Origin: Dictyostelium discoideum
Lineage: Eukaryota
Assembly (NCBI GenBank): GCA_000004695.1
Contig: CM000154.2
Span: 1,568,001 to 1,632,000 of the forward strand
Length of the DNA stretch: 64,000 nt
Direction: 5' to 3'
Shown here piece after piece: positions 5,001 through 59,836 of the stretch. The notes below the pieces were generated by a model. The model worked only from the letters and a program-made list of their open reading frames with translations. It did no database searches and had not been told where the DNA came from. Numbering within the stretch: position 1 is the first letter of the stretch; every line of letters begins with the position of its first letter. Both the position numbers and the translations under genes were made by a program.

Positions 5001-5672
5001 TATAGCTATAGCGCGCATAATAGTGGTAAAAAGAATAAACAAACTCCAATTTCATCACCTGGAAAAACCACTTCCACCACTGCAACATCTTCACCATCAC
5101 CATTTGTTAATAGTAGTAGTAGTAGTAATGGATTTGAATCAATTTCAAAGAGTAAAGAAATATTCAATGATAATATAAAGAATCAAAGTTGTGTATTGTG
5201 TTATGAATCTCATATTAGTGATTCTGATCCATTATCATTGATCTCATTCCTTCAACCAAGTAAAATGATAGCATACTCCAAGTGTCAATACGTTGAAAGA
5301 AAGTACCCCGAATTAACAAAGTATGATTTCTTTGTTGGTAGTGAACCAACCTATTACAATTTCCCACAAAAGAGAGATATGAATACTTTAAACTATATGT
5401 CATCATTACACATTCGTAGTTGTGGTCATTATATTCATAAGAAATGTCATTCAATTTACTTTTTAAAGGTACTCACTCAAGAACAGGATGAAAACTTTAA
5501 ACCATCTCTCAAGGAATTCTTATGTCCATTATGTAGAAGAGTTGCTAATATCATTATGCCAACCTATACTGAATCATCAGTGACATGTTCTCCAATCATC
5601 TCTTATTTTGATATTACCAATAGTACTAATAATAATAATAATAATTCAAATAATAATCTAAATAATAATCTA

Positions 5673-5703
<31 letters not shown>

Positions 5704-6048
5704 GTAATAGTAATAATAATAATATTAGTGGTAGCAATGGTTTAACAAATAGTAATGGTATTGGAAGTAGTAGTAATAGTGTTAACAATAGTCCAAATTT
5801 TGGTGGTAATGCCAATAATCTATCTATTTGGGTCGATTCATTAAAAAAGAGATTAAAAGATTTAGTAGTCATTGAACCAAGAAGTAAACTATTTTTCTCT
5901 GATTGGTTATCAACTTTAATACCTTCAATGATTGAAGGTATTACACCATGGGTACTTTATCAAATTGTTTCAAAAAATATTGAATTTTTAGAATTAGCTT
6001 CAAGATTAGTTGAATTATCACCATCATCATCATCAAATAATAATAATA

Positions 6049-6124
<76 letters not shown>

Positions 6125-7345
6125 GACAACATATCCAATTGGAAATGAATTATTTAGTAGAGATATGTTAACAATTCATACATTATTTAATTTAATTGGT
6201 TCATTAAATCAATCTTCAATTGATAGTAAATTTAAAGAAAGATTAGTTGATATAATCAAAGGTAAATCTGGATCAATTTTATCGGTTGATCCATTTTCAT
6301 TATTCATTGTTTTAGTTTCAATATTGGGTACACCAACAAATCAAGATGTTGAAATCATTACAACTTTGGTTTTAAATTTATTCATTACTCAATTTTATTT
6401 AACAAATTTATATTTAGAAAAAGGTATTAATTTATTAATTAAATTATTGTTTAATATAATTTATAAAACAACTAACATATTTCATAATATTATTTTTTTT
6501 TTTTTTTTTTTTTTCATTAAATTTTAGAAATTAATAAAAAACAAGTTAAATCAATATCACAAATTTTTCAACAAACATATACAGCAGCATCAACATCAAC
6601 ATTAAGAATGAAATATGAAGATAGATTAAAGAAAGTTATGGAACCATTAGCAAGATGTTTGTACATTGCATATCAATTCTTACAACCACCTCAAATTAGT
6701 GGTGATGGTATAAACTATATAAACAGAGAAGACCTTACCAATAAGGAAAAGATTTACTCAAGATTAGGTATAAATTCAATGGAAGAAATAGTCAATAGAG
6801 CATTATTTAACAATCCATACTTGAGTCAATGGTTATCACAAATGGAGAGTAAGAAAGTGGATCCATTCTTTATTGTAGAATATAGACGTCCAAAATTCAT
6901 AACACTTCCAGAGAGTTTTGAAGACTTTTTCGTTTCAAGTGCCCAAAGAGAATGTATGAATTGTAAGACTAAACCAGAGTTTTCTGCAGTTTGCTTACTT
7001 TGTAATCAATTGGTATGCTCTCATAGGAGCGAATGTTGTAATGATGATGATAAACATTATAACATATCCGAAGGCTATAAACATACTTTGAAATGTGGCA
7101 GTTTTAAGGTTGGTTTCTTTTTAGAAACTAAAGCTCCTCGAATCGATATCCTACGTGATCATAGAAAGAGTATTTTTAATAATGGTTACCTCGATCAATA
7201 TGGTGAATCCGATCCAACTTTGGATCGTGGTAAACCATTATTAAGAAATGATAATAACTTTCAAGATCTTTGGAATTGTTGGATTACTCATTCAATTGAG
7301 GATCGTTTCCTTTCAAACTCAACACTTTCTTCTAGAACTTTTTAA
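1035..7345 (+). CDS. UBR-box N-recognin E3 ubiquitin ligase (UBR1/UBR2-like). Proposed CDS join(1035..1401,1516..6423,6528..7345).
   Basis: Exon 1 ends ...VCCSR then GTATGT. Exon 2 continues VWGSSYE...YRCKTCALSPNSSICFECFKAGPHEREKHDYSMSFASYGGSCDCGSLDSWKRSGFCSEHE. This matches the UBR box of human UBR1 ([31 protein letters not shown]...GGFCDCGD..W...GFC..HE). Splice phases are consistent (114-bp and 104-bp AT-rich introns). The last exon carries the C-terminal Cys-rich UBR autoinhibitory region (CMNCKTKPEFSAVCLLCNQLVCSHRSECC). It also has long poly-N/Q/T/S tracts typical of Dictyostelium. Confidence 0.85.
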
Positions 7346-7451
7346 ATATATAAATATATAAAAAAAAAATAAAAATAAAAAATAAAAAAAAAATAAAAAA
7401 AAAAATTAGATTTTTTTTTTTGGAAGTGTTTATTAAAAAAGTTTAAAAATA

Positions 7452-7484
<33 letters not shown>

Positions 7485-7885
7485 TATTTTTTTTTTTTAA
7501 AAAATAGTTAATTAAAAAAAATATAAAGAAGAATATCCAAAATCACCAAAAACCCACCCATAAAAAAAAACATATGAGCTAACCTATTAAAGCTCGAAAT
7601 TTATTCATATATCTTGAAAAATAATATTCTTTTTTTTGATAGTCAAATGATGGGGTTGTGCAAAAAAAAAAAAAAATAAAAAAAATAAAAAATAAAAAAT
7701 ATCTTCATCAAATGTTTTATTAGAATTATTATTTTAAAATCTTTTTTTCCCACATTAAACTTCACATTCGCACTTAAAAAAACTAAACAATGTCCACCTT
7801 TATTTTAATTTTTTTTTTTTTTTTTTTTTAACTTCACTATTTAAACTTTAATTTTATTATAATTATTTAATAAAGTTTCAAAAAA

Positions 7886-10800
7886 ATGAAGTATTCAAGT
7901 TTTTTATTACTTTTTATATATATATTTTTTATTTTAAATAATGTAACTTTTTAAATTTGGACTTTAAAAAATAAAAAATAAAATTAATATAGGATTTATT
8001 AATAGTTTAATAATTATTTTAATTAGATAAATGCTCAATCATGTCCATCTACTAGTTCAACATGGAGACCAACAATGGCATCATTTGTAACACCAACATC
8101 TCCATCAATTGCAACAATTCAACCACAATTAGACTTTTTATTAGGTAAAAATAATTTGGTTTTTATGGGTCAATATGGTTACTCTGCAACTTCGATTACT
8201 GATGGTCCAACAGGTGTAGCAAATTCATTCACTATGAATTATGATACTTGGGGTCCAGCAATGCATTGGTTGGTTGTAAAGACACCTGTTCCCGCTCTTA
8301 AAGCAAATCAAAACTATGAATTTAGTTTTGGTTTTAAATTGGGTCAAGTTTTAGGTAGCTATAATAAAATTGCAAGTATTTCAGTAAACTTTTTTAATCC
8401 AGCCGATATTACAGATCCAAATGGAGGAAGTCAATATTTTGTAACTCCAGCACACCCAGCAGTATATAGTAAAACCGTTACCACTGGTTCGTGGACTTCA
8501 TCTACAACATTTGCCCAAAACATCATTACTCTTACACCTACTGTTGATATTGGTTTATCAATAATGGCAATTCAAATTACTCGTACCTCCCAAACTGGTC
8601 CAGCTATTACCACTATGTTTGTTAGTAACATGAAATTATCAATTCCATCCAGAACCGTTCCAGCTCCACCAACCAACTTAATTACCAAAGATTCCGAATT
8701 AATTGCTATTCCAAAACCATTATCAAGTCTTGATGCTCAAGATTCAACAACATGTCCATACTTAGCAACCGATTTAGTTCACTGGCACGACCCAACAATT
8801 TGGACTAGTGGTGTTGTACCATTACCATCAACTTCATCAAACATTATCATACCAGCAGGTAAAAAAGTTTTAATCTCACCATGCTCAATCAACCAAACCG
8901 GTATTTATCAAAAAATTACTATCCCAGCAACTTCTGAATTAATATTTGCAGATGCAAGCTTAACAATGAATATTCAAGATATTTATGTCCAAGGTAAATT
9001 TATCATGGGTACAACTAAATGTCGTTACAATGCCAATATTAATATTGTATTCAATGGTGCAATGACAACTGTTGATACAATTGCTCAATATTTTGGTTCA
9101 AAAGGTATTGCTGTTGCTTCAGGTGGTTTTATAAGTGTTCATGGTAGACAATACCATAATACTTGGACTAAATTGGCTGCCACTGCTTGGTCTGGTGATA
9201 ATGTTATCTATATTCAAGATGATGTTAATTGGATTGTTGGACAACAAGTTGTAGTTGCAACAAGTGTTTATCAAGATGAGAAATATCCAGAGAATGAAGT
9301 AATGACAATTGCTGCCATCCAAGGAAAAGTTATACAATTCACTGAACCACTTAAATACTATCATTATGGTGGTCAAGAATATCAAGCTGAAGTCGCTCTC
9401 CTAACAAGAAATATCGTTTTCCAAAGTGAGTCTTCATCTGCTGCTTCATCATTTGGTGGTCATGTTCTTGTAAGTGGTGAAGGTCAGTTTGCTGGTATTC
9501 AACTCATTCGTATGGGTCAAAGAAACATAAAAGGTCGTTATCCATTACATTTCCACATGGCAAACACAGTTAGCAAATCCTACATTTCTGATTGTTCAGT
9601 AGTCAGTAGTTATTATCGTTGTTACACAATTCATGCCACTAATAATGTAACTGTTACAAGAAATGTTGCATTTGATGTAAATGGACATTGTTATTATTTA
9701 GAAGATGGTGTTGAAATGGATAACACTCTTTCATTCAACTTTGCTTCATATGTTCATACGATTGGAACTCCAGCAGCAGGATATAATCAATATGGTCAAG
9801 ATTTTACCCAATCATCTTCACTTGCACAACCAGCTGATGTTGCTGCTGGTGGTTTCTATATTACAAACGCATGGAATTCATTTATTGGTAATGCAGCAAG
9901 TGGTGGTTGGGCAGGTTTTTCATTCCCAAACTTAGACGCACCAATTGGTAATTCAATTAATGTTCCAATCGTTCCAAAACAATTCACAACTAAAGTTTTC
10001 CAAGGTAATACAGCACATTCAAGTGGATACTTTTTTGAATTTGGTTCATCCATTTATGTAGGAGGCGATTTATCAACAGGATCAGATGGTTTATTGGTTT
10101 ATAATAGTGGTAGAATTTCAAGAGAAACCTATTTAAATGGTGTTGAATCTGGAGGTGAAATTTGGATGAGATTTAACAATACAAAAGTTTATCTTTCCAA
10201 TAGGGGTATTGGTATGTGGGGTGAACGTGTTGAAGTTATTTTATTAGAAAGTCATGACTCCATTCGTCCAGGTTCATTATTTGGTGAAGCATGGTTATCA
10301 GATGCAATTGTAAATGGTCAAACTGGTAATTTATTGTCTAAAACCACTGATTATTCAAGACAAGGTTTCCAATTTTATGATACTTATGTAAAGACAATTT
10401 TAACCAATATCATTTTCAGAAACTTTGTTCATAATCCATTATCAACAAGTCCAGAAGATGACAATAGAGTGATCATCAGTATGACCCATTCCGATGAATT
10501 TAAACCACAATTTATCTCTGCTACAAAGAATATTACCATTCAAGGTACAGCTGTCTCTCAATATATTGGACATCGTATTTTTGATACTGGTTCAAGTCGT
10601 CAATTTAATTTTGTAGATTATGACGGTACCATTTCAGGTAGAAGTGTTCCAACTATTTTTGGCGCACATGATAAATGGTGGCAATTCGATAACACTTGTA
10701 CATACAATAACGATTGGAATTCTTGGGTTTGTAATAAGGGTACTTATGAAGTTGCAAGTGTATCTGTTGAAGTACCAGGCTATATGGATCGTTCAGGTGA

Positions 10801-11329
10801 ATATGATGCAACATCCAATGTCGGTTATATTTATTTATTCGGTAGTGGAATTACAGATTCAAGAAGAATGAATGTAACAAGAAATGTTGGTATCACTGGT
10901 ATTTCTGACTTTGGATGGTATTTATATTGGACTGTAGGTACACCAAGTTATATTAAACTTTGGTTATCAGAAGTTCCATATGGCCACTATGTTTTCTTTG
11001 CAATTCCATACCCAGCAAGTACAACCTTTAAAGTTTCATGTGAATATAAATATAACTCTCAACATTCTTATAATTTCACACAAGCCACATCAGCCGCTGC
11101 AGTTAGAAGTGGTGATGGTAAGAAATATTATTTCAATGGTACTCATCTTTTTGTTAAAGTTATCAACTTTGTCTTAAATGGAAGTGAATACTTTAGTCGT
11201 GGAGGTGCCAAAATCAATGATGTATATTGGGAGTTCATTGTTCACATTACAGCAACCAATACCGTAAAACCACCTGTAAATGGATTTTATACTGGTTTAA
11301 CAGATGTATTACCTTCAAGTACACTTTAA
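7886..11329 (+). CDS. Secreted G8-domain / right-handed beta-helix protein (CEMIP/KIAA1199-TMEM2-like). Proposed CDS join(7886..7942,8027..11329).
   Basis: The G8 consensus region is CPYLATDLVHWHDPTIWTSGVVPLPSTSSNIIIPAGKKVLISPC...IFADASLTMNIQDIYVQGKFIMGTTKCRY. It is followed by the beta-helix block with GRYPLHFHMANTVSKSYISDCSVVSSYYRCYTIHATNNVTVTRNVAFDVNGHCYYLEDGVEMDNTLSFN, whose GRYPIHFH motif is typical of the CEMIP/TMEM2 family. A 19-codon upstream mini-exon (MKYSSFLLLFIYIFFILNN, a signal peptide) ends at GTAACT. It joins in phase 0 to an AG acceptor at 8025-8026, giving ...NN|INAQSCPSTSSTWRPTMASF. The mini-exon and splice are inferred only. Confidence 0.7.
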
Positions 11330-11461
11330 TAAATCAAAATAATAAAATAGTAAAATAATTATGTTTAATATACAAAATTAAAAATAATGTTTGTTTTTTT
11401 TTTTTTATAATTTTGATGTTCTTTTTATTTTAATATTTTTTATTTAATACTTTGAAATTCC

Positions 11462-11846
11462 AAAGTGGCAGTTTTAAGGTTGGTTTCTTTTTAGAAAATA
11501 AAGCTATTCGGGTGGATATCCTACGTGATAATAGAAAGAGTATTTTTAATGATGGTTCCAATACTGTGAATGTTGGCATCACTGGTATTTCTGACTTTGG
11601 TTGGTATTTAAATAAATAAGTAAATTGGACTGTGGGTGCACCAAGTTATATTAAACTTTGTTTATCAGAAGTTCCATATGCTCGTTATTTGAGAAATTGA
11701 AAAAAAATAATAAAATAAATCAAAATAAAATAATAATAAAATAATTATGTTTATTTTTTTAATTATTTAATCAATACCTCTAAAATAATTTCAGTAATTT
11801 GTAAATAGTTGATTTATTTTTTAGTTTTGATGTTTTTATTTATTTT

Positions 11847-11870
<24 letters not shown>
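11462..11870. repeat. Mosaic pseudo-duplication: a copy of UBR last-exon bases ~7090-7195, then a degraded copy of G8 gene bases ~10868-10990, then a copy of the G8 3' UTR (~11330-11450).
   Basis: 11470-11565 (gtggcagttttaaggttggtttctttttagaaaataaagctattcgggtggatatcctacgtgataatagaaagagtatttttaatgatgg) is ~90% identical to 7095-7195. 11566-11697 (gaatgttggcatcactggtatttctgactttggttggtattt...ccaagttatattaaactttgtttatcagaagttccatatg) matches 10873-10985, with a 14-bp insertion. 11700-11870 repeats 3' UTR motifs (aaatcaaaataa...taaaataattatgttta..., ttttgatgtt). No intact ORF. Confidence 0.8.
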
Positions 11871-11898
<28 letters not shown>

Positions 11899-12011
11899 AA
11901 TTATTATTAATTATTATTAATTATTATTAATTATTATTAATTATTAATTATTATTAATTATTATTATTTATTATTATTATTACTTATTATTATTATTATT
12001 ATTTTTAAAAA

Positions 12012-19613: not shown

Positions 19614-20567
19614 TTAATTTATTTACTAATATATAATTTTTTGTAATTATTATAGTTCCATCAACACCACCATTTTTATTAATGGATAAAAAAGGATACA
19701 TTAAAAAATTAGTTCAAGAATATAAAGAAGGTACAATTTCACCAACAGGATTAAAAATTATTGCATTGATTGCATCAACATTAGATGGTGATAAATATTT
19801 ATTAAAATATGATATGTTTGATATTGTTTGTGAAAAAGTAATCTCAAAAAAAGAAACAACTTTAAATAATTCTGATCAAGATTTTTTCATTCTCTTTCGT
19901 TTATCATTTAACTCAAAAAAAGCTGTACCAAATGAAATCGTTCAAAAAACTGAAAAAACTCATTTCTATAGATTTTTTACAGGTAAAAACATTTAAATAT
20001 ATATTTTTTAATCAAATTTATTAAAAAATAACTTTTAATTAACTTTTATTTATTTATATTATCATTTATTTTATTACTTGGGGGGAAAAAAAAAAAAAAG
20101 AAAATGAAAAAAGATTATCAGAATTAGAAGGAATGGTAGATTCATTTAAAATTAATTCAAAAGATGTTTTGTTATCTTTAATAGTTGCACCAATATTCGC
20201 ATTTGCAATTTTTTCCAGAAGAGTTTCACCAACAACTCTTTTTAATTCAATGAAAAGAAGTGCGGTCACATCAGGAATGGTAATGAGTGGTCCATTGCTT
20301 AGGGATTATATGAATGAAAATCTATTTGAAAATTGTGAAAACTTTACATGTCATGCATTGAAATCACAACTTCCATTCGTAGGTTATGGTTTGTTTTTAT
20401 TACAGTGCTCCCATTTTTCTTTTATCAGTTGGGTTTTGCCAGTTTTTACAACTTTATTTATTACAAAATCTTTTGAAGCCTACAGATACATTCCCAAAGT
20501 AACAGAGTTTTTACGTAAAAAGAAACCAAGAGATACTGATTTTTCAGTTGAACAAAAAAGTATTTAG
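19100..20567 (+). CDS. Hypothetical protein with mitochondrial-presequence-like N-terminus, coiled-coil segment and C-terminal hydrophobic helices. Proposed CDS join(19100..19415,19656..19982,20101..20567).
   Basis: Three ORFs in consistent phase. Exon 1 ends ...GNGSV+a at GTAATA. Exon 2 (tt CCA TCA...) gives ...I PSTPPFLLMDKKGYIKKLVQEYKEG...FYRFFT, with a GTAAAA donor. Exon 3 gives (E)NEKRLSELEGMVDSFK...LIVAPIFAFAIFSRR...FVGYGLFLLQCSHFSFISWVLPVFTTLFI.... Intron 1 contains a (TTTA)n repeat. No confident family assignment. Confidence 0.45.
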
Positions 20568-20757: not shown

Positions 20758-20797
<40 letters not shown>

Positions 20798-21055
20798 TAA
20801 TAAATCTTTGTACTTTAATGGAGATAGATAATTATTAATAAGTTTATTTATGGATTTTTAAGTTTTTTTTTTTTTAAATACCAGTAAAGTTAAATAAATC
20901 GATTTTTGATTATTTAAAAGAAGATGGTATTTTTTTTTTTTTTTTTTTTTTTAATATTGGATTAACAAGATTGATATATGTCCATCTGTGTTAATACGAG
21001 TTTTTATTTAATATTTATTTATAGGCTTATCATTTAAGCTGAAGGGTTATTTTAA

Positions 21056-22587
21056 TCATATGAATTGATCAAAAGATATAATATTTGGGAGAGATGATTC
21101 TGGAATACAATAGTAATTAGCTGTTGTTTTTCTTAGCTTAATCGTTGAGGTGAGAAGGATCTTAGGATCTTTGAAATTATTATGGTCTTTTGCTGATAAG
21201 TTTTTCAGATCTTTTGCTTTTTTGATGTATTCTAGAGTGGCCAATTTGTGCCATTTCTTTAGAAGGGAGCTGTATGATAATGATTCATTTGTTAAAGGAT
21301 CTTCACTGTATATTTGATTGCAAATCCAAATCCAAATGTTGTGGAGGATAAGGGCCATTAGGTTTCTATATGCGAATGATCTGGTTAGATCATAGTCTAT
21401 TGCTTTATAGTTCCATTCAAAGTATTCTTTGTGGAATCTGTGGTTGGCGTAATCTGCATTCACTTCTTGATCTTTTTTGGCTGTCGGTGATAATTTTGGA
21501 GTTATTCTATTAATGAAATTGTTATTTTGCCTAATTCTTGTATGATGCCAGTTTTTACCTTTGCCTGTGGTAATATAGATGAAATTTTTGAGTTTATTTA
21601 TTTTTATGAATTGTTTTGTTTTCTTGCATGAGAAGAACAGGTGACCGTATGGGTCTTTGCTCATATCTTCTTTGCAGAGTGGGCATTGTTTGTTGTGAAG
21701 GTAGTTTATTGGAAGGCATCTGGCATGGAATCTAAACATTGTGTCTCTTGTTTTAGGGTCTTTTATCTTCAGTATGTTGTTGAAGAGTTGATTATAGCTG
21801 TAGCCTCTTAAGTTTAGAGATGATTGGAATTCCGTTTTAGGGATGGTTGGATTTTGGTCTTGAATTGTGGTATACCATTCTGCCAGTGAAAGTGGTTGTC
21901 CATTTTCGTTTTTTATGGATGTGAGATTATTGTTGAAGATTGCTTTTTTGATTCTTATTTTGTTCCATTCGTCTAAGTTTTCTTTTAGGTATCTGGATGT
22001 GAATTTGTTTTTTTGGATTTGATATTCCCAGCTTTTGTGATGAGATGAGTTTGTTTGTTTGGTTTCTAGTGCTAGGATGAATTGGTTTATGATCCAAAGT
22101 TTCTGCGCCAGTTGTCTCAATTCTATATTCCAAATGTTCCAGCCCCCTACTTTTAGTGGGTATCTTGCTCTTTTGGTTCTCATTAAATTAATAACTTGAA
22201 ATCCACTAGCATTTTTGTTGTTTGGTGCCGATAAAAACCATTCGACTAATTTATTGATTTGGTTTAATTCCTCTTCCTTAAAGTTCTCTACATATGAATA
22301 GTAGGTTAATTTAGAGAGTGCGAATGCTTTGAGGATGTTGGTTTTGGTTTTGATTGTTGAGTCAGTGGTTTTCCATAGTACTAAGGATGATCTTATTGTG
22401 TTTAATATTTCTGGCATTTTTCTTGTTATCCCTTTGCCTGTGAAGAAGTATCCCAAGTATCTTTCTGGATTTGTAGATATTGGAATTCTTTGGTTGGTAT
22501 TGTCTGGGTTGCCTATAAGAATTGATGAAGATTTGTCGATGTTTAGTTTTGAGGAAGTGGCTTTGCAAAATGAATTGAAGTGTTGTA
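21056..22587 (-). CDS. Retrotransposon ORF2, C-terminal portion (the N-terminal endonuclease/RT core is presumably lost in the gap)
   Basis: The frame is open from the gap edge: ...QHFNSFCKATSSKLNIDKSSSILIGNPDNTNQRIPISTNPERYLGYFFTGKG...CPLCKEDMSKDPYGHLFFSCKK.... It lies downstream of ORF1, as is typical for a LINE. Confidence 0.65.
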
Positions 22588-22687
22588 NNNNNNNNNNNNN
22601 NNNNNNNNNNNNNNNNNNNNNNNNNNNNNNNNNNNNNNNNNNNNNNNNNNNNNNNNNNNNNNNNNNNNNNNNNNNNNNNNNNNNNNN
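22588..22687. other. Assembly gap (100 N)
   Basis: Run of exactly 100 n inside the retrotransposon. Confidence 1.
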
Positions 22688-23769
22688 TGGTTGACTTCAT
22701 TGTTTGACTGGATTTCCTCGTTCTTGCGTTTATGTGATGGAGGGATGTTTAGTGTCTTCTCTCTGTTTTCCGAGGATGAATGGATGTTAGTGCTTGTTTT
22801 GTTGGCATTGTCTTTTTGGATGGCGTTGGATGTTGTGGTAGTGGTTGTGGTGGGTTTGACAGATTGAGATTCTGCTGGGTTTTTGGGGGGAAGAGGTTGA
22901 GATGACTTTTTTGCTTGGGCTTTTTTCTCTTGTGTTGATTGTTTATCAGACTGATTGTTTGCTGGGTTGTTTGTTTGTTGTTGTGGTTTTGGTTGAGAGG
23001 ATTTGATTGCTATCCTGTTTTGGGTGTTAGGAGGATCTGTCATCTCATCTTCTAATGGTTCCTCCGTGTTGTTTGTCTCTACTTTCTTGTTTTTCTTTTG
23101 TGAGGAGTAGGTTTTGGTGGCCGTTCTGATGGTAAAGTTTGCGATTTCTGTAATGTGTTGGCCAGATTTCATTTGATCGCCTATTTTGCATTCTATTAGA
23201 CCGAATACTATGAGGTGGTCGGTGGAGTATATAGTATTGTATATTGCATAGGGTATTTCTTCTGCAAAGGCAGTTTTGATGAGGGCGTCCACTATTCCTG
23301 CCTTTTCTCTGGGAATTCTTACTCTTCCTGTGAGGACGTGGAAGTCTCTACTGGAGGTGATGAAGGTTCCCAATTTGCTTCTATCTCTAATGATATTTAG
23401 GAGAGATTGTTCGTTTTTAATCATCAGGTGGATCATTTTTCTAGTTCCTTTGCCTATGTATATCTTGTCGATTGGGATATCGTAGTTTGAGAGTGTTTTT
23501 CTCATTTCTTCTAACCCCTTGAGATCCATTTTGGGGAATTCGAGTGTAATTGGGTAGAATCCGTTGTTCTTCTCGTAGGTTGAGAGCGCAGTCATGTTCA
23601 ATATGGTCTCGCAGTATTTGGAGATGTCTTTGAGGCCTATTGATAGTTTGGGGTAGGTCTCCTTTATCTCTGCTGTTTTTGTGGAGAATTCCTTAATGAA
23701 GTTCTCCGATGCCTCGTCCATATGGGTGGAGGGGTTGGCCATTTTAGCCGCGTCTGCGTAGGAATTCAT
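22688..23769 (-). CDS. Retrotransposon ORF1 (the frame stays open into the assembly gap)
   Basis: The ORF starts MNSYADAAKMANPSTHMDEASENFIKEF...HVLTGRVRIPREKAGIVDALIKT..., followed by a low-complexity Q/T/K-rich tail. It runs into the Ns at 22687. Confidence 0.65.
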
Positions 23770-24073
23770 CTCGATGGGATTCCTTTGAATCGGCGATTTG
23801 GTAAGTTAGATCTGTAGATCGTGGTGGATTGGTGATTTTTTTTGAAAGATTGGTTAAAATTGACCGAGATTAAGGATAGAAAAGGATGAATTACTTTTCA
23901 CGTGTATCTTGTATCCTCTTGATCGCGGTACGGGTTTTTTAAGATGGTATTGATCTATATCAAATAGTCTTCTGATTGTTTGTAATATGGTGAAATAATA
24001 AACAAAATTTGGTTACGCAGTTGTTTTAATAAGGAATCGATCATGTATACTTAGGTATGGTCCTATAAAATTT

Positions 24074-24146
24074 CGCCTAGACATGGGATCGAACCATGGA
24101 CCTAGCGGTTAACAGCCGCTCGCTCTGCCTACTGAGCCATCCAGGC
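24074..24146 (-). tRNA. tRNA-Asn (anticodon GTT), 73 nt
   Basis: The minus-strand sequence is GCCTGGATGGCTCAGTAGGCAGAGCGAGCGGCTGTTAACCGCTAGGTCCATGGTTCGATCCCATGTCTAGGCG. The 7-bp acceptor stem pairs (one G-U). The anticodon loop is CT-GTT-AA. The T-arm is CCATGG-TTCGATC-CCATG, which includes the B-box GGTTCGATCC. A T4 terminator follows directly 3'. Confidence 0.95.
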
Positions 24147-24197
24147 ATTTTTATATTTTTTTATAAATTTAGCTCCTTCTGATTTTTGATAAAGAAA

Positions 24198-24236
24198 TAA
24201 TAATAATAATAATAATAAAAAAATAAGAATAACAAG

Positions 24237-24278
<42 letters not shown>

Positions 24279-24333
24279 ATAAATAAACTCTCCTAGAACA
24301 CACTCAAATTGAGTGATGTTATTAAAAAAAAAA
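24198..24333 (+). mobile_element. 5'-truncated retroelement 3' end (or retrocopy) ending in oligo(A), flanked by the TSD
   Basis: ...ctataaataaactctcctagaacacactcaaattgagtgatgttatt followed by A10 and then the TSD. It sits at the TRE5 target position, in opposite orientation to the tRNA. Confidence 0.55.
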
Positions 24334-24348
24334 TTTTTGATAAAGAAA

Positions 24349-24440
24349 TGTATACGGCCATACTAGGTTGGAAACACATCATCCCGTTCGATCTGATAAT
24401 TAAATCGACCTCAGGCCTTCCAAGTCCAATTCAAAAAAAA
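24349..24440 (+). pseudogene. 5S rRNA retropseudogene fragment (5' ~75 nt of 5S rRNA) with oligo(A), flanked by the TSD
   Basis: tGTATACGGCCATACTAGGTTGGAAACACATCATCCCGTTCGATCTGATAATTAAATCGACCTCAGGCCTTCCAAGT carries the universal 5S features (GGCCATAC...CCCGTTCGATCTG...) and matches the Dictyostelium 5S 5' half as I remember it. It then breaks off (ccaattc) into A8 plus the TSD. Confidence 0.7.
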
Positions 24441-24461
24441 TTTTTGATAAAGAAAATTTAA

Positions 24462-24660
24462 TTTTTTTTTTTTTTTGATAAATTACCAAATAAGCTTTTT
24501 TTTTTTTCTTTCTTTATTTTAGCTCAAAGCAGATTTTTTATTTATAATGCCTTATCTATTTAAAAAAACATCTTTTATAAACCATCAAATAAGCTTTTTT
24601 ATATTCTTTTTTTATTTTAGCTCAAAGCCAATTTTTTATTTTGGTAATTTATTTCCATAA
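24462..24660. repeat. Two tandem copies of a ~95-100 bp unit (accaaataagctttttt...tttattttagctcaaagc(a/c)(g/a)atttttta)
   Basis: Direct comparison of 24470-24560 with 24578-24660. Possibly a retrotransposon 5'-UTR module. Confidence 0.6.
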
Positions 24661-24892
24661 TAATAAACATTGCACAAATTAGCTAGAATTTAAAAAAGAG
24701 AAAATTAAAAACTAACTCTTGAACGGACCAGAGAAATTTTAAATATCCAAATGAATTCCTTAAACAAATAAATAAATTAAGAAAATTTGTTTGAAAAGTT
24801 TATTGTATTCCAGAATAAGTGTTTCCAAGCATAGTATCCTTCGAGCAATTTAATAATTACAACTTATTATTGAATTTGTTTATTCAGAGGGT

Positions 24893-25020
24893 ATGTTGCC
24901 ATCATATAGAATAGTTCTGGATACTACTTCAATCACCATTACAAAGAGAGTAGGTGATAATGGATCTCCCTGTTTTACTCCTCTTTTTATAGTAAAGGGG
25001 GGTGTGGGTTTTCCATTGAT
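24893..25020 (-). pseudogene. Non-LTR retrotransposon reverse-transcriptase fragment
   Basis: The minus-strand translation PFTIKRGVKQGDPLSPTLFVMVIEVVSRTILYDGNIPSE* contains the LINE RT motif (compare L1 [23 protein letters not shown]). It is truncated on both sides. Confidence 0.65.
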
Positions 25021-25136
25021 TTTTATCCTGGTTTGAGTCTGTCAGTGGTTTCATAATTAGGTTTGTTAGGTTGGTGAGAACTTTGATATGTTGAAGCGTT
25101 CTAAGTATTGATTTGGAAAGAGTTATTTATCTCTGA

Positions 25137-25190: not shown

Positions 25191-25379
25191 AACATTAAAT
25201 AATAGTTTTATTTATGAATTTTAATTTAAAAAATAAAGTGGTTATTCTTTTTTAATTTGAGTTATCAAAGAGTTTTAATTTTAAAATGAAGTGTAGTTAA
25301 AATTGGTTTTGTGAATTGTTCGATTGGGGTTAGATATAATTTCAGTTATTTTTTTTATTTTTTTTTATTTTAGTTTATG

Positions 25380-25613
25380 ATAATGAAAAGAGAGAATGAA
25401 TGTATAGAAAATGGAGAAAAAAGAAATAATGTAAATTCATTTAATAGAATCATTAAGCTAACAGTAACTGATGGTATTGAATATAGTGAATTATTATTTT
25501 GGAAGATATTTAGAAATATAGTGACAATAAAATAATAATGTCAATTATTTCTTTTTTATTTCCAAGATATATTTTCGCAATTTTTTTATAATTTCTTTTT
25601 ATTTTTTAATTTT

Positions 25614-25650
<37 letters not shown>

Positions 25651-25790
25651 CATGTATTAATAATAATGACCAATCAGATTCAGCATCTCCTTCAATTACC
25701 ATTCAAGATATTGAAACATTTATAAAAATAACACCAAAAGAAAAATTAAAATCAACATTAGAAACCCAATAAATTCCAACTTTAATAATA
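25380..25790 (+). pseudogene. Partial upstream duplicate (pseudogene) of the 5' part of the 26285 gene
   Basis: 25375-25525 is ~95% identical to 26275-26425 (MKRENECIENGEKRNNVNSFNRIIKLTVTDGIEYSELLFWKIFRNIVTIK* versus the intact MKRENECKENGEKRNN...). 25660-25790 matches 27290-27415 (DQSDSASPSITIQDIETFIKITPKEKLKSTL). The copy is internally deleted and stop-containing. Confidence 0.8.
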
Positions 25791-25964
25791 ATTATCATTA
25801 TTAATAAGTTATAAAAAAAAAAAAAGGCGCTCTTTTGAATAATCAAAAAATGAAATGAATTATTATTATTATTATTATTATTAATAAGTTATAAAAAAAA
25901 ACAATGGGAGAGGGGTGATTTTTACTTTTTTTTGTTTATTTAATTATTTAATTATTTAATTATT

Positions 25965-26284: not shown

Positions 26285-27059
26285 ATGAAAAGAGAGAATG
26301 AATGTAAAGAAAATGGGGAAAAAAGAAATAATGTAAATTCATTTAATAAAATCATTAAGCTAACAGTAACTGATGGTATTGAATATAGTGAATTATTATT
26401 TTGGAAGATATTTAGAAATATAGTGATCAATAAAATAATAATGTCATTCATGGATAAACGATTTACACCAAAATATAAAACAATTTCAGATGGAGCTGAA
26501 ATGATTCGAAATAATCAATTCAGTCTATTAAAAGATAAAATTAAAATAAATTGCAGATATTTACATTTTTATGACAAAAAAGGTTGTGAGATTGAAATTT
26601 TAAATAAATTATTCAAAACAATCATTAGCGATAATGAATTTTACAGAAAATTCTTTAGAAATCACCTTTTTGAATTTACTAATAGAAAAGTAATCATTTC
26701 ATTAATTACATCAAAGAATTTACAAGTATATCAAATATTTATAGAAGAGTTTAATCATATACCAACTGTTTATGATCTAAAAATAGCAATTTCAGTTGGT
26801 GCTAACAAATTCATTAGATATCTATTAGAACAATCACAACTAGAACAATCAAAATTTAAAATAAACATATCAAAAGATGATTTAGATAATTATAATTCAA
26901 TTGATACAATAGTTGCTCCAAATAAAGTTATTTCAAATTTAAGAAAAATTATTTTAAAAAATTCTTCTAAATTTTTTTTTCCATTTAAATTATTAAATTT
27001 AAAGAGAGATATGTTTAAAGGATTACTATGCTATTTTAATTGTTATCAAAGTTTAAGAG

Positions 27060-27155
<96 letters not shown>

Positions 27156-27770
27156 TTCAAGAACTAACGATTGATACTCTTTTGAGTATTCATTCGAATA
27201 GAGAAAATGAGTTGATAATAAAATCAACATCAACAATAAAATCACTAATTAGAGTTTGTATATTAATATTAAAATTAAAAGCAATGACGAAAACAAACGA
27301 CCAATCAGATTCAGCATCTCCTTCAATTACCATTCAAGATATTGAAACATTTATAAAAATAACACCAAAAGAAAAATTAAAATCAACATTAGGAAACCCA
27401 ATAAATTTCAACTTTAATAATAATGTCAAGTATGATGATGATGGTGATGATGAACAACGTTTTTCTAAATTAATAACATACCAAATTAAAGAATATAATA
27501 GTAATAGAAATAGAATACCACGGAAAGTATTCTATAAATCAAAAAGTGGTCAAATGGTTCAATTAATTTGTAAACATTGTGGAGATTCAAGCTTTACAAC
27601 ATTTTGTTCTTTTTTACTTCATTATCGATACGATCATTCTCGTATGGATTTTCCACAGTTTGAAGACGCCGAAGAAGTTAGTATTAATCCCGGTGGCGAG
27701 CTTGAAATATTATTATATACACCCGATTTAGACAGTAGTTTTTTCAAAAGATTTAATAAACAATCAGAAG

Positions 27771-27863
<93 letters not shown>

Positions 27864-29321
27864 GTTGTAGGTCTAATGATGATGATGATGAACATAAAAC
27901 CTTTATAAAGAAATTATTGGATGAATATTATTCAATATTTTGTAAAGATAGATCAGCCATTATATATTATTATTATTACGATGGATTTAATAATATCAAT
28001 TTAGAAAATAAAAGTTTATACAGTGTAGATTTAAAAGAATATTATGAATCATTTAGATTTGGAATTCCAACATTTGACTTGGTTGGTCATTTTCTTTATG
28101 ACCACCTTAATTTTATATCATTGATAGATATCATGAGATATCCAGATAAAAAGTCAATTTATATTTTATTCTCAAATTGTACAGATAGATTAAAAAAGAT
28201 TCAGTTTATAGATAAAACCATTCAATCAATAAAATCAAATGGTTTACGAAATGTTGAAAACCAATTAACGAATTTCTTTTATATGGTTGTCATGCACGAC
28301 GATTTAGAATTAATAAAGTATTTTTTCAAACAAATAAATGGTTATCAATTACATTTGGGTGGTGGGGGTGGAGATTTACATTACTTATATATGTTTAACC
28401 CAACAATTTATATTGGTTCGGTAGATGTTTTAAATTATTTATTTGAAAATCATAGAGAATATTTTATTGATGATAATTATAACTATTATTCCTATTTCAA
28501 GAATTTAAAATTATTAAAACACTTTGAAGCATTAACACTCAAAGTTCCATCAACATTAAGAATTTGTGAATACTTGGACCACTATACCAGAGGTGATAAT
28601 TTTCAAAATTATATATCACATATCATCAGAAACCGTTTGTATTTGAGTATTGATTTGATTGAATCAATTTTTTGTTTCTCTCCAAAGAATACATTATTCT
28701 CAACCAATTCTCTTCAATCTACAACTATTAATTTTAAAACATACAAACTATTAGCAAACATCTTTTTTTCACAAAAAAAACGCAGAACAATAAAAATTTG
28801 GCCATCACTTTACCAAAGATTTTTTAAACTTTTTAGATTGGATGTTTACAAATCATTTTAATAAAATGAAAAAAGGAGCAAGGTTTTTTAATTCGGATAA
28901 ACAGTTACAACTATTTCTTTTTCTAACTAACAGATTAAACATTGGTGACATTATTGATTTCGATGAACTTAGATTCATTGTTAATGATATTGAATTTTCA
29001 CCTAATATTCACCATTTGTTAGATTTGATGTTAAAAAATGTTAAAAATAATGAAATCTTTTTAAGGGTTCTAGAAATTGCTATTGTTAATTCAAGATTAC
29101 ATATTTTAGAATTTGTTAATGAAAACAGTGGCAACCTTTTAAAAGAAATAAAGAATCTTGGCGAACGATTTGATGTTTTTCTATATCGCGTATTTGAAGG
29201 TGATAATGTAAGGGTATCAGAATTTCTACTTCAATTTATCAACCAAGTAGATTCAGAAAAATTATTTGGTCCAAAATCATTATTATATATTTCAAATAAA
29301 TTAAAATCTTTAAATAAATAA
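26285..29321 (+). CDS. Orphan paralog-family protein (member A), apparently frameshifted: an 858-aa ORF plus a 159-aa ORF overlapping by 20 nt in different frames
   Basis: The N-terminus motif SELLFWKIFRNIV resembles EILFWKVYRNVY of the 1246-aa protein at 43473..47213. The C-terminal ORF (…RLHILEFVNENSGNLLKE…) resembles the C-terminus of that paralog (…RFKMLEILNENGFIKKD…). So the two ORFs are one gene broken at ~28842-28861 by a -1 frameshift or a sequencing error. It contains a C-x2-C...H-x4-H element (LICKHCGDSSFTTFCSFLLHYRYDH) and poly-N tracts. Confidence 0.55.
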
Positions 29322-31422: not shown

Positions 31423-32265
31423 ATGTCAACAATGTATGCACGAGAATATGCTGGAAATCCAATTAAACCAGATGTTAATATCTTTCAAAATAAATCATTT
31501 AAACAAGGTGAAAAACCAAAAAAGTTGGATGAAGATTATTTCCTCTACTCGTTGAAATCTCTTTTCAAAGATAATTTGAATGAATATCCAGGTAAACAAT
31601 TAGACAGACCAAACAAACTCGATATTACCGCCGCCGATGATAGAGAATTGAATTTTCTTGAAGAGAAGAAATGGGATGAGAAAGAACTCCTTAAAGAACA
31701 ACGTGCTGAAACATTCAAGAATTTCACCTTCCCACCACATATGTCAATCCAAGAGAAATGCGTAGACCAATTGCAACAAGATTACGACGATTTCCATATG
31801 CTTTGCTTAAGAGATATGTTCCGTGATAAAGAATGTGATTTGGAAGGATTTAGTCGTACACCAGCTCAAGATAAAGATGAACTTAAAGAAATGAATCTTA
31901 CTCATGAATCATTACTAAAGGAGAAATCCAAACTTCCATTAAAGAAACAACAACAAAATAAATCCTCAAATAAAATCAATGGTAAATTAAATAAAAAGAA
32001 AATCTCACCAAATCAAAAGAGAACAATTATCCGTCAAACTAAAACTACAACAACAAGAATTTTTAAAAAACCAATCTCCTCAATGGAACCAATTACAAAA
32101 ACTGAAATAACCTCAAAAACTATTACTAGACCTGTAACTGAAATTCCTTCTAATGATCCAAAATCAAAACCAAAATTATCAACTCAAACAAGTTATTCTG
32201 TCGACCTTTCACACTTAAATAATAACTCTTGGGTTTGGGATAATGGTGAAACTAGAAAATTATAA
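31423..32265 (+). CDS. Hypothetical protein, 280 aa, charged/low-complexity
   Basis: Single [24 protein letters not shown]...[11 protein letters not shown] with typical codon usage. No family recognised. Confidence 0.5.
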
Positions 32266-55806: not shown

Positions 55807-55906
55807 NNNNNNNNNNNNNNNNNNNNNNNNNNNNNNNNNNNNNNNNNNNNNNNNNNNNNNNNNNNNNNNNNNNNNNNNNNNNNNNNNNNNNNNNNNNNNN
55901 NNNNNN
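55807..55906. other. Assembly gap (100 N)
   Basis: Run of 100 n between NAT copies 1 and 2. Confidence 1.
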
Positions 55907-59736: not shown

Positions 59737-59836
59737 NNNNNNNNNNNNNNNNNNNNNNNNNNNNNNNNNNNNNNNNNNNNNNNNNNNNNNNNNNNNNNNN
59801 NNNNNNNNNNNNNNNNNNNNNNNNNNNNNNNNNNNN
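59737..59836. other. Assembly gap (100 N), followed by ~150 bp of low-quality-looking sequence
   Basis: A run of n is followed by ttaaggggatttaaggggttttaaggggattt...ttttcccccccggggggtaagg, with homopolymer stutter atypical of this genome. Confidence 0.9.

Follow-up and report, generated by a model that had tools for sequence, protein, structure and literature searches.

Two unrelated inserts between three copies of one target-site duplication upstream of a Dictyostelium discoideum tRNA-Asn gene: probable reuse of a nick pair by two TRE5 families, with an apparent 5S rRNA/TRE5-A chimera

The 64,000-nt stretch of Dictyostelium discoideum DNA analysed here (the window) contains a single tRNA gene, a tRNA-Asn(GTT) on the minus strand whose upstream side lies towards the higher coordinates. 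Just upstream of it, two short and mutually unrelated A-tailed inserts are found between three identical copies of a 15-bp target-site duplication (TSD). The reading that we consider probable is that of two successive TPRT insertions made with an identical nick pair, the first of them carrying a chimera of 5S rRNA and the TRE5-A 3' terminus, and the second the tail of a TRE5-B-type element. A single TPRT event leaves two copies of its TSD, and therefore three copies around two unrelated inserts call for two events at the same nick pair, which agrees with the two retrotransposition events at one site that had been postulated from the sequence.

The features of the locus are listed in Table 1. 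The 15-mer TTTTTGATAAAGAAA was recovered by exact search at the three positions originally predicted and nowhere else in the 64 kb, while its chance expectation from base composition (GC content ~22%) is ~0.01 copies per window. Copies 1 and 2 have also the next base in common, forming the 16-mer TTTTTGATAAAGAAAT, and copy 3 is followed by A. As had equally been predicted, both inter-copy segments, of 136 nt (insert 1) and 91 nt (insert 2), close with oligo(A), the A8 of the latter being located at 24433–24440. The predicted spacing of the repeat from the tRNA was also recovered, although the figure given for it (37–51 bp upstream) was off by one base, the measured one being 36–50 bp. Insert 1 has its 5' end pointing to the tRNA and its 5' junction at −50/−51 from the tRNA +1, and both inserts, on the plus strand versus a minus-strand tRNA, are arranged head-to-head with it. 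Junction position, orientation, A10 and A8 tails and 15-bp TSDs all fit the TRE5-like tRNA distance that had been proposed for the site; TRE5-A integrates ~47 ± 3 bp upstream of tRNA genes, within an observed range of 23–211 bp (PMC5391098). The six TRE5-type inserts examined in this work are all head-to-head with a tRNA (6/6), with 5' junctions from −40 to −51 and recognisable TSDs of 10–15 bp.

Table 1. Features of the tRNA-Asn locus in window coordinates.
Feature	Position	Strand	Basis
tRNA-Asn(GUU) gene, Pol III target presumed to position the insertions	24073–24147	−	ARAGORN; Rfam RF00005, 64.3 bits
TSD copy 1, TTTTTGATAAAGAAA	24183–24197	+	exact match; −36 to −50 relative to tRNA +1
Insert 1, putative 5'-truncated TRE5-B-type 3' UTR	24198–24333	+	match to the 3' end of the L008 element
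Insert 1, (TAA)7	24198–24218
Insert 1, TAAGAATAACAAG	24224–24236
Insert 1, A40	24237–24276
Insert 1, unique core	24277–24323
Insert 1, A10	24324–24333
TSD copy 2, TTTTTGATAAAGAAA	24334–24348	+	exact match
Lone T between TSD copy 2 and 5S G1	24349	+	16-mer only in copies 1 and 2
5S rRNA fragment, nt 1–76 (presumed end)	24350–24425	+	Rfam RF00001
CCAATTC + A8	24426–24440	+	with T24425 gives TCCAATTC(A)8, the TRE5-A C-module 3' terminus
TSD copy 3, TTTTTGATAAAGAAA, then original distal flank	24441–24455	+	exact match

Insert 1 is composed of (TAA)7, A7, TAAGAATAACAAG, A40, CTATAAATAAACTCTCCTAGAACACACTCAAATTGAGTGATGTTATT, and A10, and no second copy of it was found in the window. A search with the ORF2 of the neighbouring transposable element led us to another locus (L008), which holds a distant reverse-transcriptase relative (P0054) and a full-length non-LTR element (L008 5177–11394) with ORF1 at 5565–6929 and ORF2, including an RT domain, at 7001–11196. 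A tRNA-Asp gene on the minus strand is arranged head-to-head with this element, whose 5' end is 40 bp upstream of it, and an 11-bp TSD, TTTTAATAAAA, flanks the element. Its 3' UTR reads (TAA)n...TAAAAATAAGAATAACAAG A25 TACAAATAAACTCTCCTAGAACACACTCAAATTGAGTGATGTTATT A14, followed by the TSD. The final 43 nt of insert 1 are identical to this 3' UTR, TAAGAATAACAAG is common to both, their (TAA)n and A-run architecture is alike, and they have the same terminus, GTTATT(A)n, next to the TSD. Judged by these matches, insert 1 appears to be one contiguous, 5'-truncated 3' UTR copy of an L008-type element. We also considered two separate events parted by the A40 run and rejected them, since an A25 run sits inside the 3' UTR of the full-length element itself and the internal A-run of insert 1 thus belongs to the element.

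Comparison with retroelement 3' ends had been named as a check on insert 1, and the match just described bears out the idea that it is a TRE5 3' end. What had to be given up is its assignment to a TRE5-A C-module, because insert 1 has no C-module similarity and matches instead an element with neither a C-module nor a 3' B-module. TRE5-B is the only one described as devoid of a C-module, differing thereby from TRE5-A and TRE5-C (PMC3159450), and the family of insert 1 would accordingly be of TRE5-B type, a name given by elimination from literature descriptions. The ORF1 of the L008 element has no BLASTP similarity to TRE5-A ORF1, which is compatible with the published 25% identity and is not diagnostic. 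Full-text literature searches with the insert 1 core, the C-module strings, and the 5S sequence gave no match.

Insert 2 begins with a 5S fragment, in accordance with the original prediction, recognised by Rfam RF00001 with 36.4 bits (E = 3.6e-5), just under the gathering score of 38. Model positions 1–66 are aligned and ~43 are skipped; the 5' end is complete and the 3' domain is missing. A functional 5S gene would have ~119 nt, the 3' strand of helix I, helices IV and V, and a score above the gathering value, and insert 2 does not have them. We take the 5S homology to end at nt 76, based on the Rfam alignment together with the published D. discoideum 5S sequence. The first 5S nucleotide, G1, lies one base past TSD copy 2, and at its other end the fragment is joined straight to TCCAATTC with a 1-nt overlap, T24425 being assignable to either 5S or TRE5-A (1-nt microhomology). 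TSD copies 2 and 3 bracket the whole unit, and there is none between its two parts.

The second part is recognised by its terminus, as TCCAATTC(A)n closes the three TRE5-A C-module copies that were retrieved (L007 2968–2987; L007 7392–7399, minus strand; L003 11907–11924), and the probability of TCCAATTC at a fixed position by chance, estimated from composition, is ~1e-5. One of the elements concerned, L007 607–2990, is a TRE5-A.2 by its layout of A-module, B-module, ORF1, B-module, and shortened C-module; it is found 47 bp upstream of another tRNA-Asn and ends in ...GCGTTATCCAATTC(A)12. The second copy in L007 is 5'-truncated, lies 45 bp upstream of a tRNA-Lys, ends in ...GCGTTTTCCAATTC(A)9, and has a 10-bp TSD. 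L008 also has a C-module copy that has diverged and may belong to TRE5-C; its end, TCCCATTC, has one mismatch versus TCCAATTC.

Insert 2 is apparently a template-switch chimera made by TRE5-A, in which the TRE5-A part amounts to only 8 nt. A 5S sequence that is complete at 5' and truncated at 3' agrees with an internal template jump, and incomplete reverse transcription of 5S rRNA should produce the reverse pattern. In addition, the C-module structure is needed for TRE5-A retrotransposition (PMC3159450), and therefore it is more plausible that reverse transcription started on genuine TRE5-A RNA and then jumped than that 5S was mobilised directly. Of the 5S copy proposed originally, the 5S identity is thus retained, and the plain retrocopy is replaced by a fusion to the TRE5-A terminus. 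In the predicted fold of the last 54 nt of the C-module, 5 nt are unpaired and the outer stem starts from nt 6–8 before the end, so that the foot of this stem may be the switch point. Were the chimera reading right, native D. discoideum 5S genes or rDNA would be expected without ...CCAAGTCCAATTC, and native 5S would be expected to run on ...CCAAGTACTC..., with CCAATTC nowhere. Transcription of a chimeric 5S-TRE5-A RNA from the rDNA element was judged unlikely, as a 5S gene would then have to contain a TRE5-A stub of 8 nt.

A further occurrence of the TRE5-A terminus was seen in L008, where directly past the distal TSD of the TRE5-B-type element there is a lone 8-nt TRE5-A terminus, TTTCCAATTCAAATAA (11406–11420), and after it an older TE fragment (~11420–11985) ending in a diverged C-module (...GGGCTATCCCATTC). 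This lone stub may correspond to a second reverse-transcription stop after 8 nt, or to chance, and hints at a recurrent stop at the 8-nt position.

The whole structure is present in the independent chromosome-level, AX4-type assembly GCA_054883475.1 (L002, L004), with the internal A-run of 27 bases, versus 40 in the window, as the sole difference. An assembly artefact is thereby ruled out, despite the neighbouring N-gap. We also compared the orthologous tRNA-Asn of four other lineages (ACTFIR, ACTFIW, ACTFIY, and ACTFIZ), where it is kept between the same flanking genes. The neighbouring proteins of these lineages are 91–97.5% identical to those of AX4 (3–9% diverged), and differences extend to the target sequence. 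Neither of the two AX4 inserts is found at the orthologous locus in any of the four, nor are the repeated 15-mer and the 858-aa gene (see below), and the repeat is therefore not ancestral. Both comparisons had been suggested as checks on the original prediction, the second one specifically against a pre-existing tandem repeat, and neither outcome speaks against it. Exact look-ups with short ORFs across the locus, aimed at short-read contigs of other isolates, gave no match.

The lineage ACTFIR carries an insert of its own at −47 of the orthologous tRNA-Asn (L003 11767–11939), a TRE5-A tail of 133 nt plus A-tail that ends in ...GCGTTATCCAATTC(A)n and is flanked by a 15-bp TSD, ATTTTATCTAATTTT. 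A single copy of ATTTTATCTAATTTT marks the matching empty site in ACTFIW (L005 11782–11796). This tail is an independent insertion at the same tRNA in another lineage.

The proposed course of events would be as follows. In both insertions, the priming nick would be placed in the minus strand opposite 24182/24183 (−35/−36), at the tRNA-proximal edge of the TSD, and the second nick in the plus strand, between −50 and −51. In the first event, a TRE5-A RNP anchored to the tRNA gene would start reverse transcription on TRE5-A RNA, copying the A-tail and only the last 7–8 nt (TCCAATTC) before switching template to 5S rRNA at nt 76. The 5S would then be copied to its 5' end, one untemplated base added, and the product joined to the target, leaving the 5S/TRE5-A chimera between two TSDs. 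In the second event, a TRE5-B-type element would enter the TSD copy next to the tRNA, which was still at the canonical distance, leaving a 5'-truncated copy of 136 nt and duplicating the same 15 bases (16 with the added T), giving rise to the three copies.

If there were two events, arrival of the 5S insert before the other is quite likely, because the proximal TSD copy is then left at its canonical spacing from the tRNA, and the cut would just be repeated in the TRE5-B-type event. The same order had been favoured originally, and it stands as the most parsimonious one, drawing on parsimony and on the clue of the 16-mer, with no single-insert intermediate allele or AX4-type empty allele among the lineages examined. 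The presence of the 16-mer in copies 1 and 2 only fits, weakly, an untemplated T added first and a 16-bp duplication afterwards. T24349 could be either the untemplated 5'-junction base of the 5S event or base 16 of the TSD of the second event; untemplated 5' nucleotides are common in TRE5-A (PMC5391098). Later elements have been described to enter between the tRNA and the older elements, displacing these outward (PMC5006619), and L008 is also stacked, with the diverged C-module-bearing fragment outside the TRE5-B-type element. With the 5S insert in place first, the second-strand nick would have recurred despite the changed distal sequence, which suggests that its position is set from the tRNA side. 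We can go a step further and propose, on evenly balanced terms, that the TRE5-A RT, tethered to the Pol III complex, can detach from its own RNA once 8 nt have been copied, at the foot of the C-module stem, and finish on a Pol III transcript (5S), with the exact nucleotide of both nicks dictated by tRNA/TFIIIB geometry together with the proximal sequence.

The final structure is equally compatible with the reverse order, in which the TRE5-B tail would have come first at the canonical site, followed by the 5S/TRE5-A chimera into the distal TSD copy, ~187–201 bp from the tRNA. TRE5-A integrations up to 181–211 bp upstream are known (PMC5391098), and the (TAA)n tract of TRE5-B could simply begin with T24198. 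However, ~80% of the TRE5-A integrations are found at 47 ± 3 bp, making an event at −200 rare (PMC5391098), both strands would have to be nicked in a sequence-directed manner at the same 15-mer without the tRNA/TFIIIB ruler, and the T common after copies 1 and 2 would become a coincidence. For these reasons we regard the reverse order as unlikely.

Far less probable still is the joining of two single-insert alleles by unequal crossover in the 15-bp TSD, or its variant, a single compound TPRT with several jumps, including one onto the target DNA. D. discoideum has a sexual cycle, which counts in favour of the crossover. Insertions at identical positions in different cells have been documented as well (PMC5391098), but recombination would have only 15 bp of homology available, and two independent insertions at the same nick pair would still be needed with nothing extra explained. 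In the case of the single compound event, the internal TSD copy is hard to produce. We give the least credit of all to an artefact, be it a misassembly of repeat-rich sequence or a tandem repeat of ancestral origin with no link to retrotransposition. It is true that the window has N-gaps, one of them inside the neighbouring TRE3 element (22588–22687), and that the region is rich in low-complexity sequence, yet the independent assembly is identical save for the A-run length, and a pre-existing repeat accounts neither for inter-copy segments that are mutually unrelated, each matching a known RNA 3' end, nor for its absence in all four other lineages.

Other elements surround the same tRNA gene. 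A TRE3-type non-LTR element (20931–23940, minus strand; ORF1 22543–23769, ORF2 C-terminus 21056–22456) shares the orientation of the tRNA-Asn, starts ~123 bp downstream from it, and has a 10-bp TSD, ATACCATCTT on the element strand, with copies at 20921–20930 and 23941–23950. It is interrupted in the window by the N100 gap mentioned above and is complete in L004 (ORF2 1059 aa, ORF1 416 aa). This element is absent in ACTFIR, ACTFIW, and ACTFIY, the three lineages examined downstream of the tRNA. With a TRE3-type element downstream and the TRE5 inserts upstream, the tRNA is a landing pad on both sides. Past the TRE3 3' end (~20760–20920, minus strand) there are two short segments ending in A14 and A33, which are absent at this position in ACTFIR; one of them has the motif ATAAATAAAC, also found near TRE 3' UTR starts. 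Possibly these segments are tails of TRE3 type that have become stacked on the downstream side of the tRNA.

On the other side, beyond the inserts, a ~98-bp direct repeat (24497–24543 and 24595–24641, within 24476–24641) resembles the immediate 5' flank of the tRNA-Asn. The corresponding place in ACTFIW (L005 ~11815–11860) and ACTFIR (L003 ~11960–12005) is occupied by half a tRNA-Asn pseudogene (5' half) with the same flank, and it is probable that part of the tRNA gene was duplicated in tandem at the ancestral locus. Old TRE3-like ORF2 fragments are located at 24693–24851 (+) and 24892–25114 (−), with identities to the protein of the neighbouring element of 47% at the C-terminus and ~65% in the RT motif region. 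The adjoining ~24790–24838 is conserved in other lineages, so that this stretch predates the split.

Further along, the 858-aa ORF (26285–28861) contains poly-Asn tracts and is accompanied by fragments at 25352–25543 and 25665–25793. It belongs to a Dictyostelium-specific multigene family with paralogues 34–38% identical and a closer tandem pair (87–90% DNA identity) elsewhere in ACTFIW. These 34–38% paralogues were all that the whole ORF returned as a query, the search being swamped by poly-N, and the protein had no exact match in the protein collection, nor had the AX4 reference TE proteins P0037 and P0043. An 83% paralogue obtained with a C-terminal query was rejected as the orthologous locus, since L001 is a paralogous gene cluster. 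Both the ORF and the upstream pseudo-fragments are missing in the four lineages, where the flanking genes are only 2.4–3.6 kb apart. Elsewhere in the window, the ORF 20133–20564 corresponds exactly to parts of DDB_G0294591 and the ORF 31423–32262 to DDB_G0288489, and there are further N100 assembly gaps at 55807–55906 and 59737–59836.

The locus shares with the TRE5-A and TRE5-B elements studied by the Winckler, Dingermann, and Gloeckner laboratories the tRNA distance, the 5' end turned to the tRNA, 5' truncation, oligo(A), variable TSDs, untemplated 5' bases, and exact-position reuse (PMC5391098, PMC3159450). It differs from these published cases in what would be two sequential events in one lineage with three identical TSDs, in which both nicks, and not just the 5' junction, would have recurred; the same-position TRE5 hits in the literature were recorded as 5' junctions in populations of cells, and their TSD data were not shown (PMC5391098). 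Stacked TREs at a single tRNA gene (Spaller et al., 2016; PMC5006619) are similar in having the newer element at the tRNA-defined distance and the older one displaced outward. Unlike those stacks, the inserts described here are very short and have an identical TSD, making their history readable base by base.

Insert 2 is comparable to the LINE-1 chimeras of mammals (U6/L1 and 5S rRNA/L1) and to MINE/WEIRD-MGL of Magnaporthe, in which a small, abundant, and non-polyadenylated RNA with an intact 5' end is followed by a LINE 3' end and an A-tail, with one TSD pair around the whole and 0–1 nt of junction microhomology (PMC2104539, PMC4476161, PMC13174262). It departs from them in the size of the LINE part, limited to 8 nt, in the 3' truncation of the 5S (an internal jump), and in the enzyme, which would be the tRNA-targeted TRE5-A of an amoebozoan. 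No report of template-switch chimeras in Dictyostelium was found in the searchable literature. The same two players, 5S and TRE5-A, are known to meet at the 5S gene of the D. discoideum extrachromosomal rDNA, where the 5S is the DNA target and integration takes place 35–42 bp upstream, head-to-head (PMC5391098), whereas in the window the 5S would be the copied RNA. We rejected the idea that the 5S fragment had targeted the TRE5-B tail, as the two are only 16 bp apart and tail-to-head.

Overall, tRNA targeting, exact-position reuse, and stacking have already been published, and the locus is a tidy illustration of them that does not overturn current understanding, the modestly new item being the 5S/TRE5-A chimera. 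It provides a reference-genome record, in line with the TRE5-A assays in cell populations, that separate events can reuse an identical nick pair, and in this case the reuse would involve two different TRE5 families. The chimera also points to template switching in Dictyostelium TRE5-A, as described before for L1 of mammals and for a LINE of a fungus, and X-TCCAATTC(A)n near tRNA genes, and likewise GTGATGTTATT(A)n, could serve as a signature for more cases. If true, this would be a LINE/small-RNA chimeric retrocopy in an amoebozoan, and would represent a route by which non-polyadenylated Pol III RNAs can be copied into a gene-dense haploid genome.
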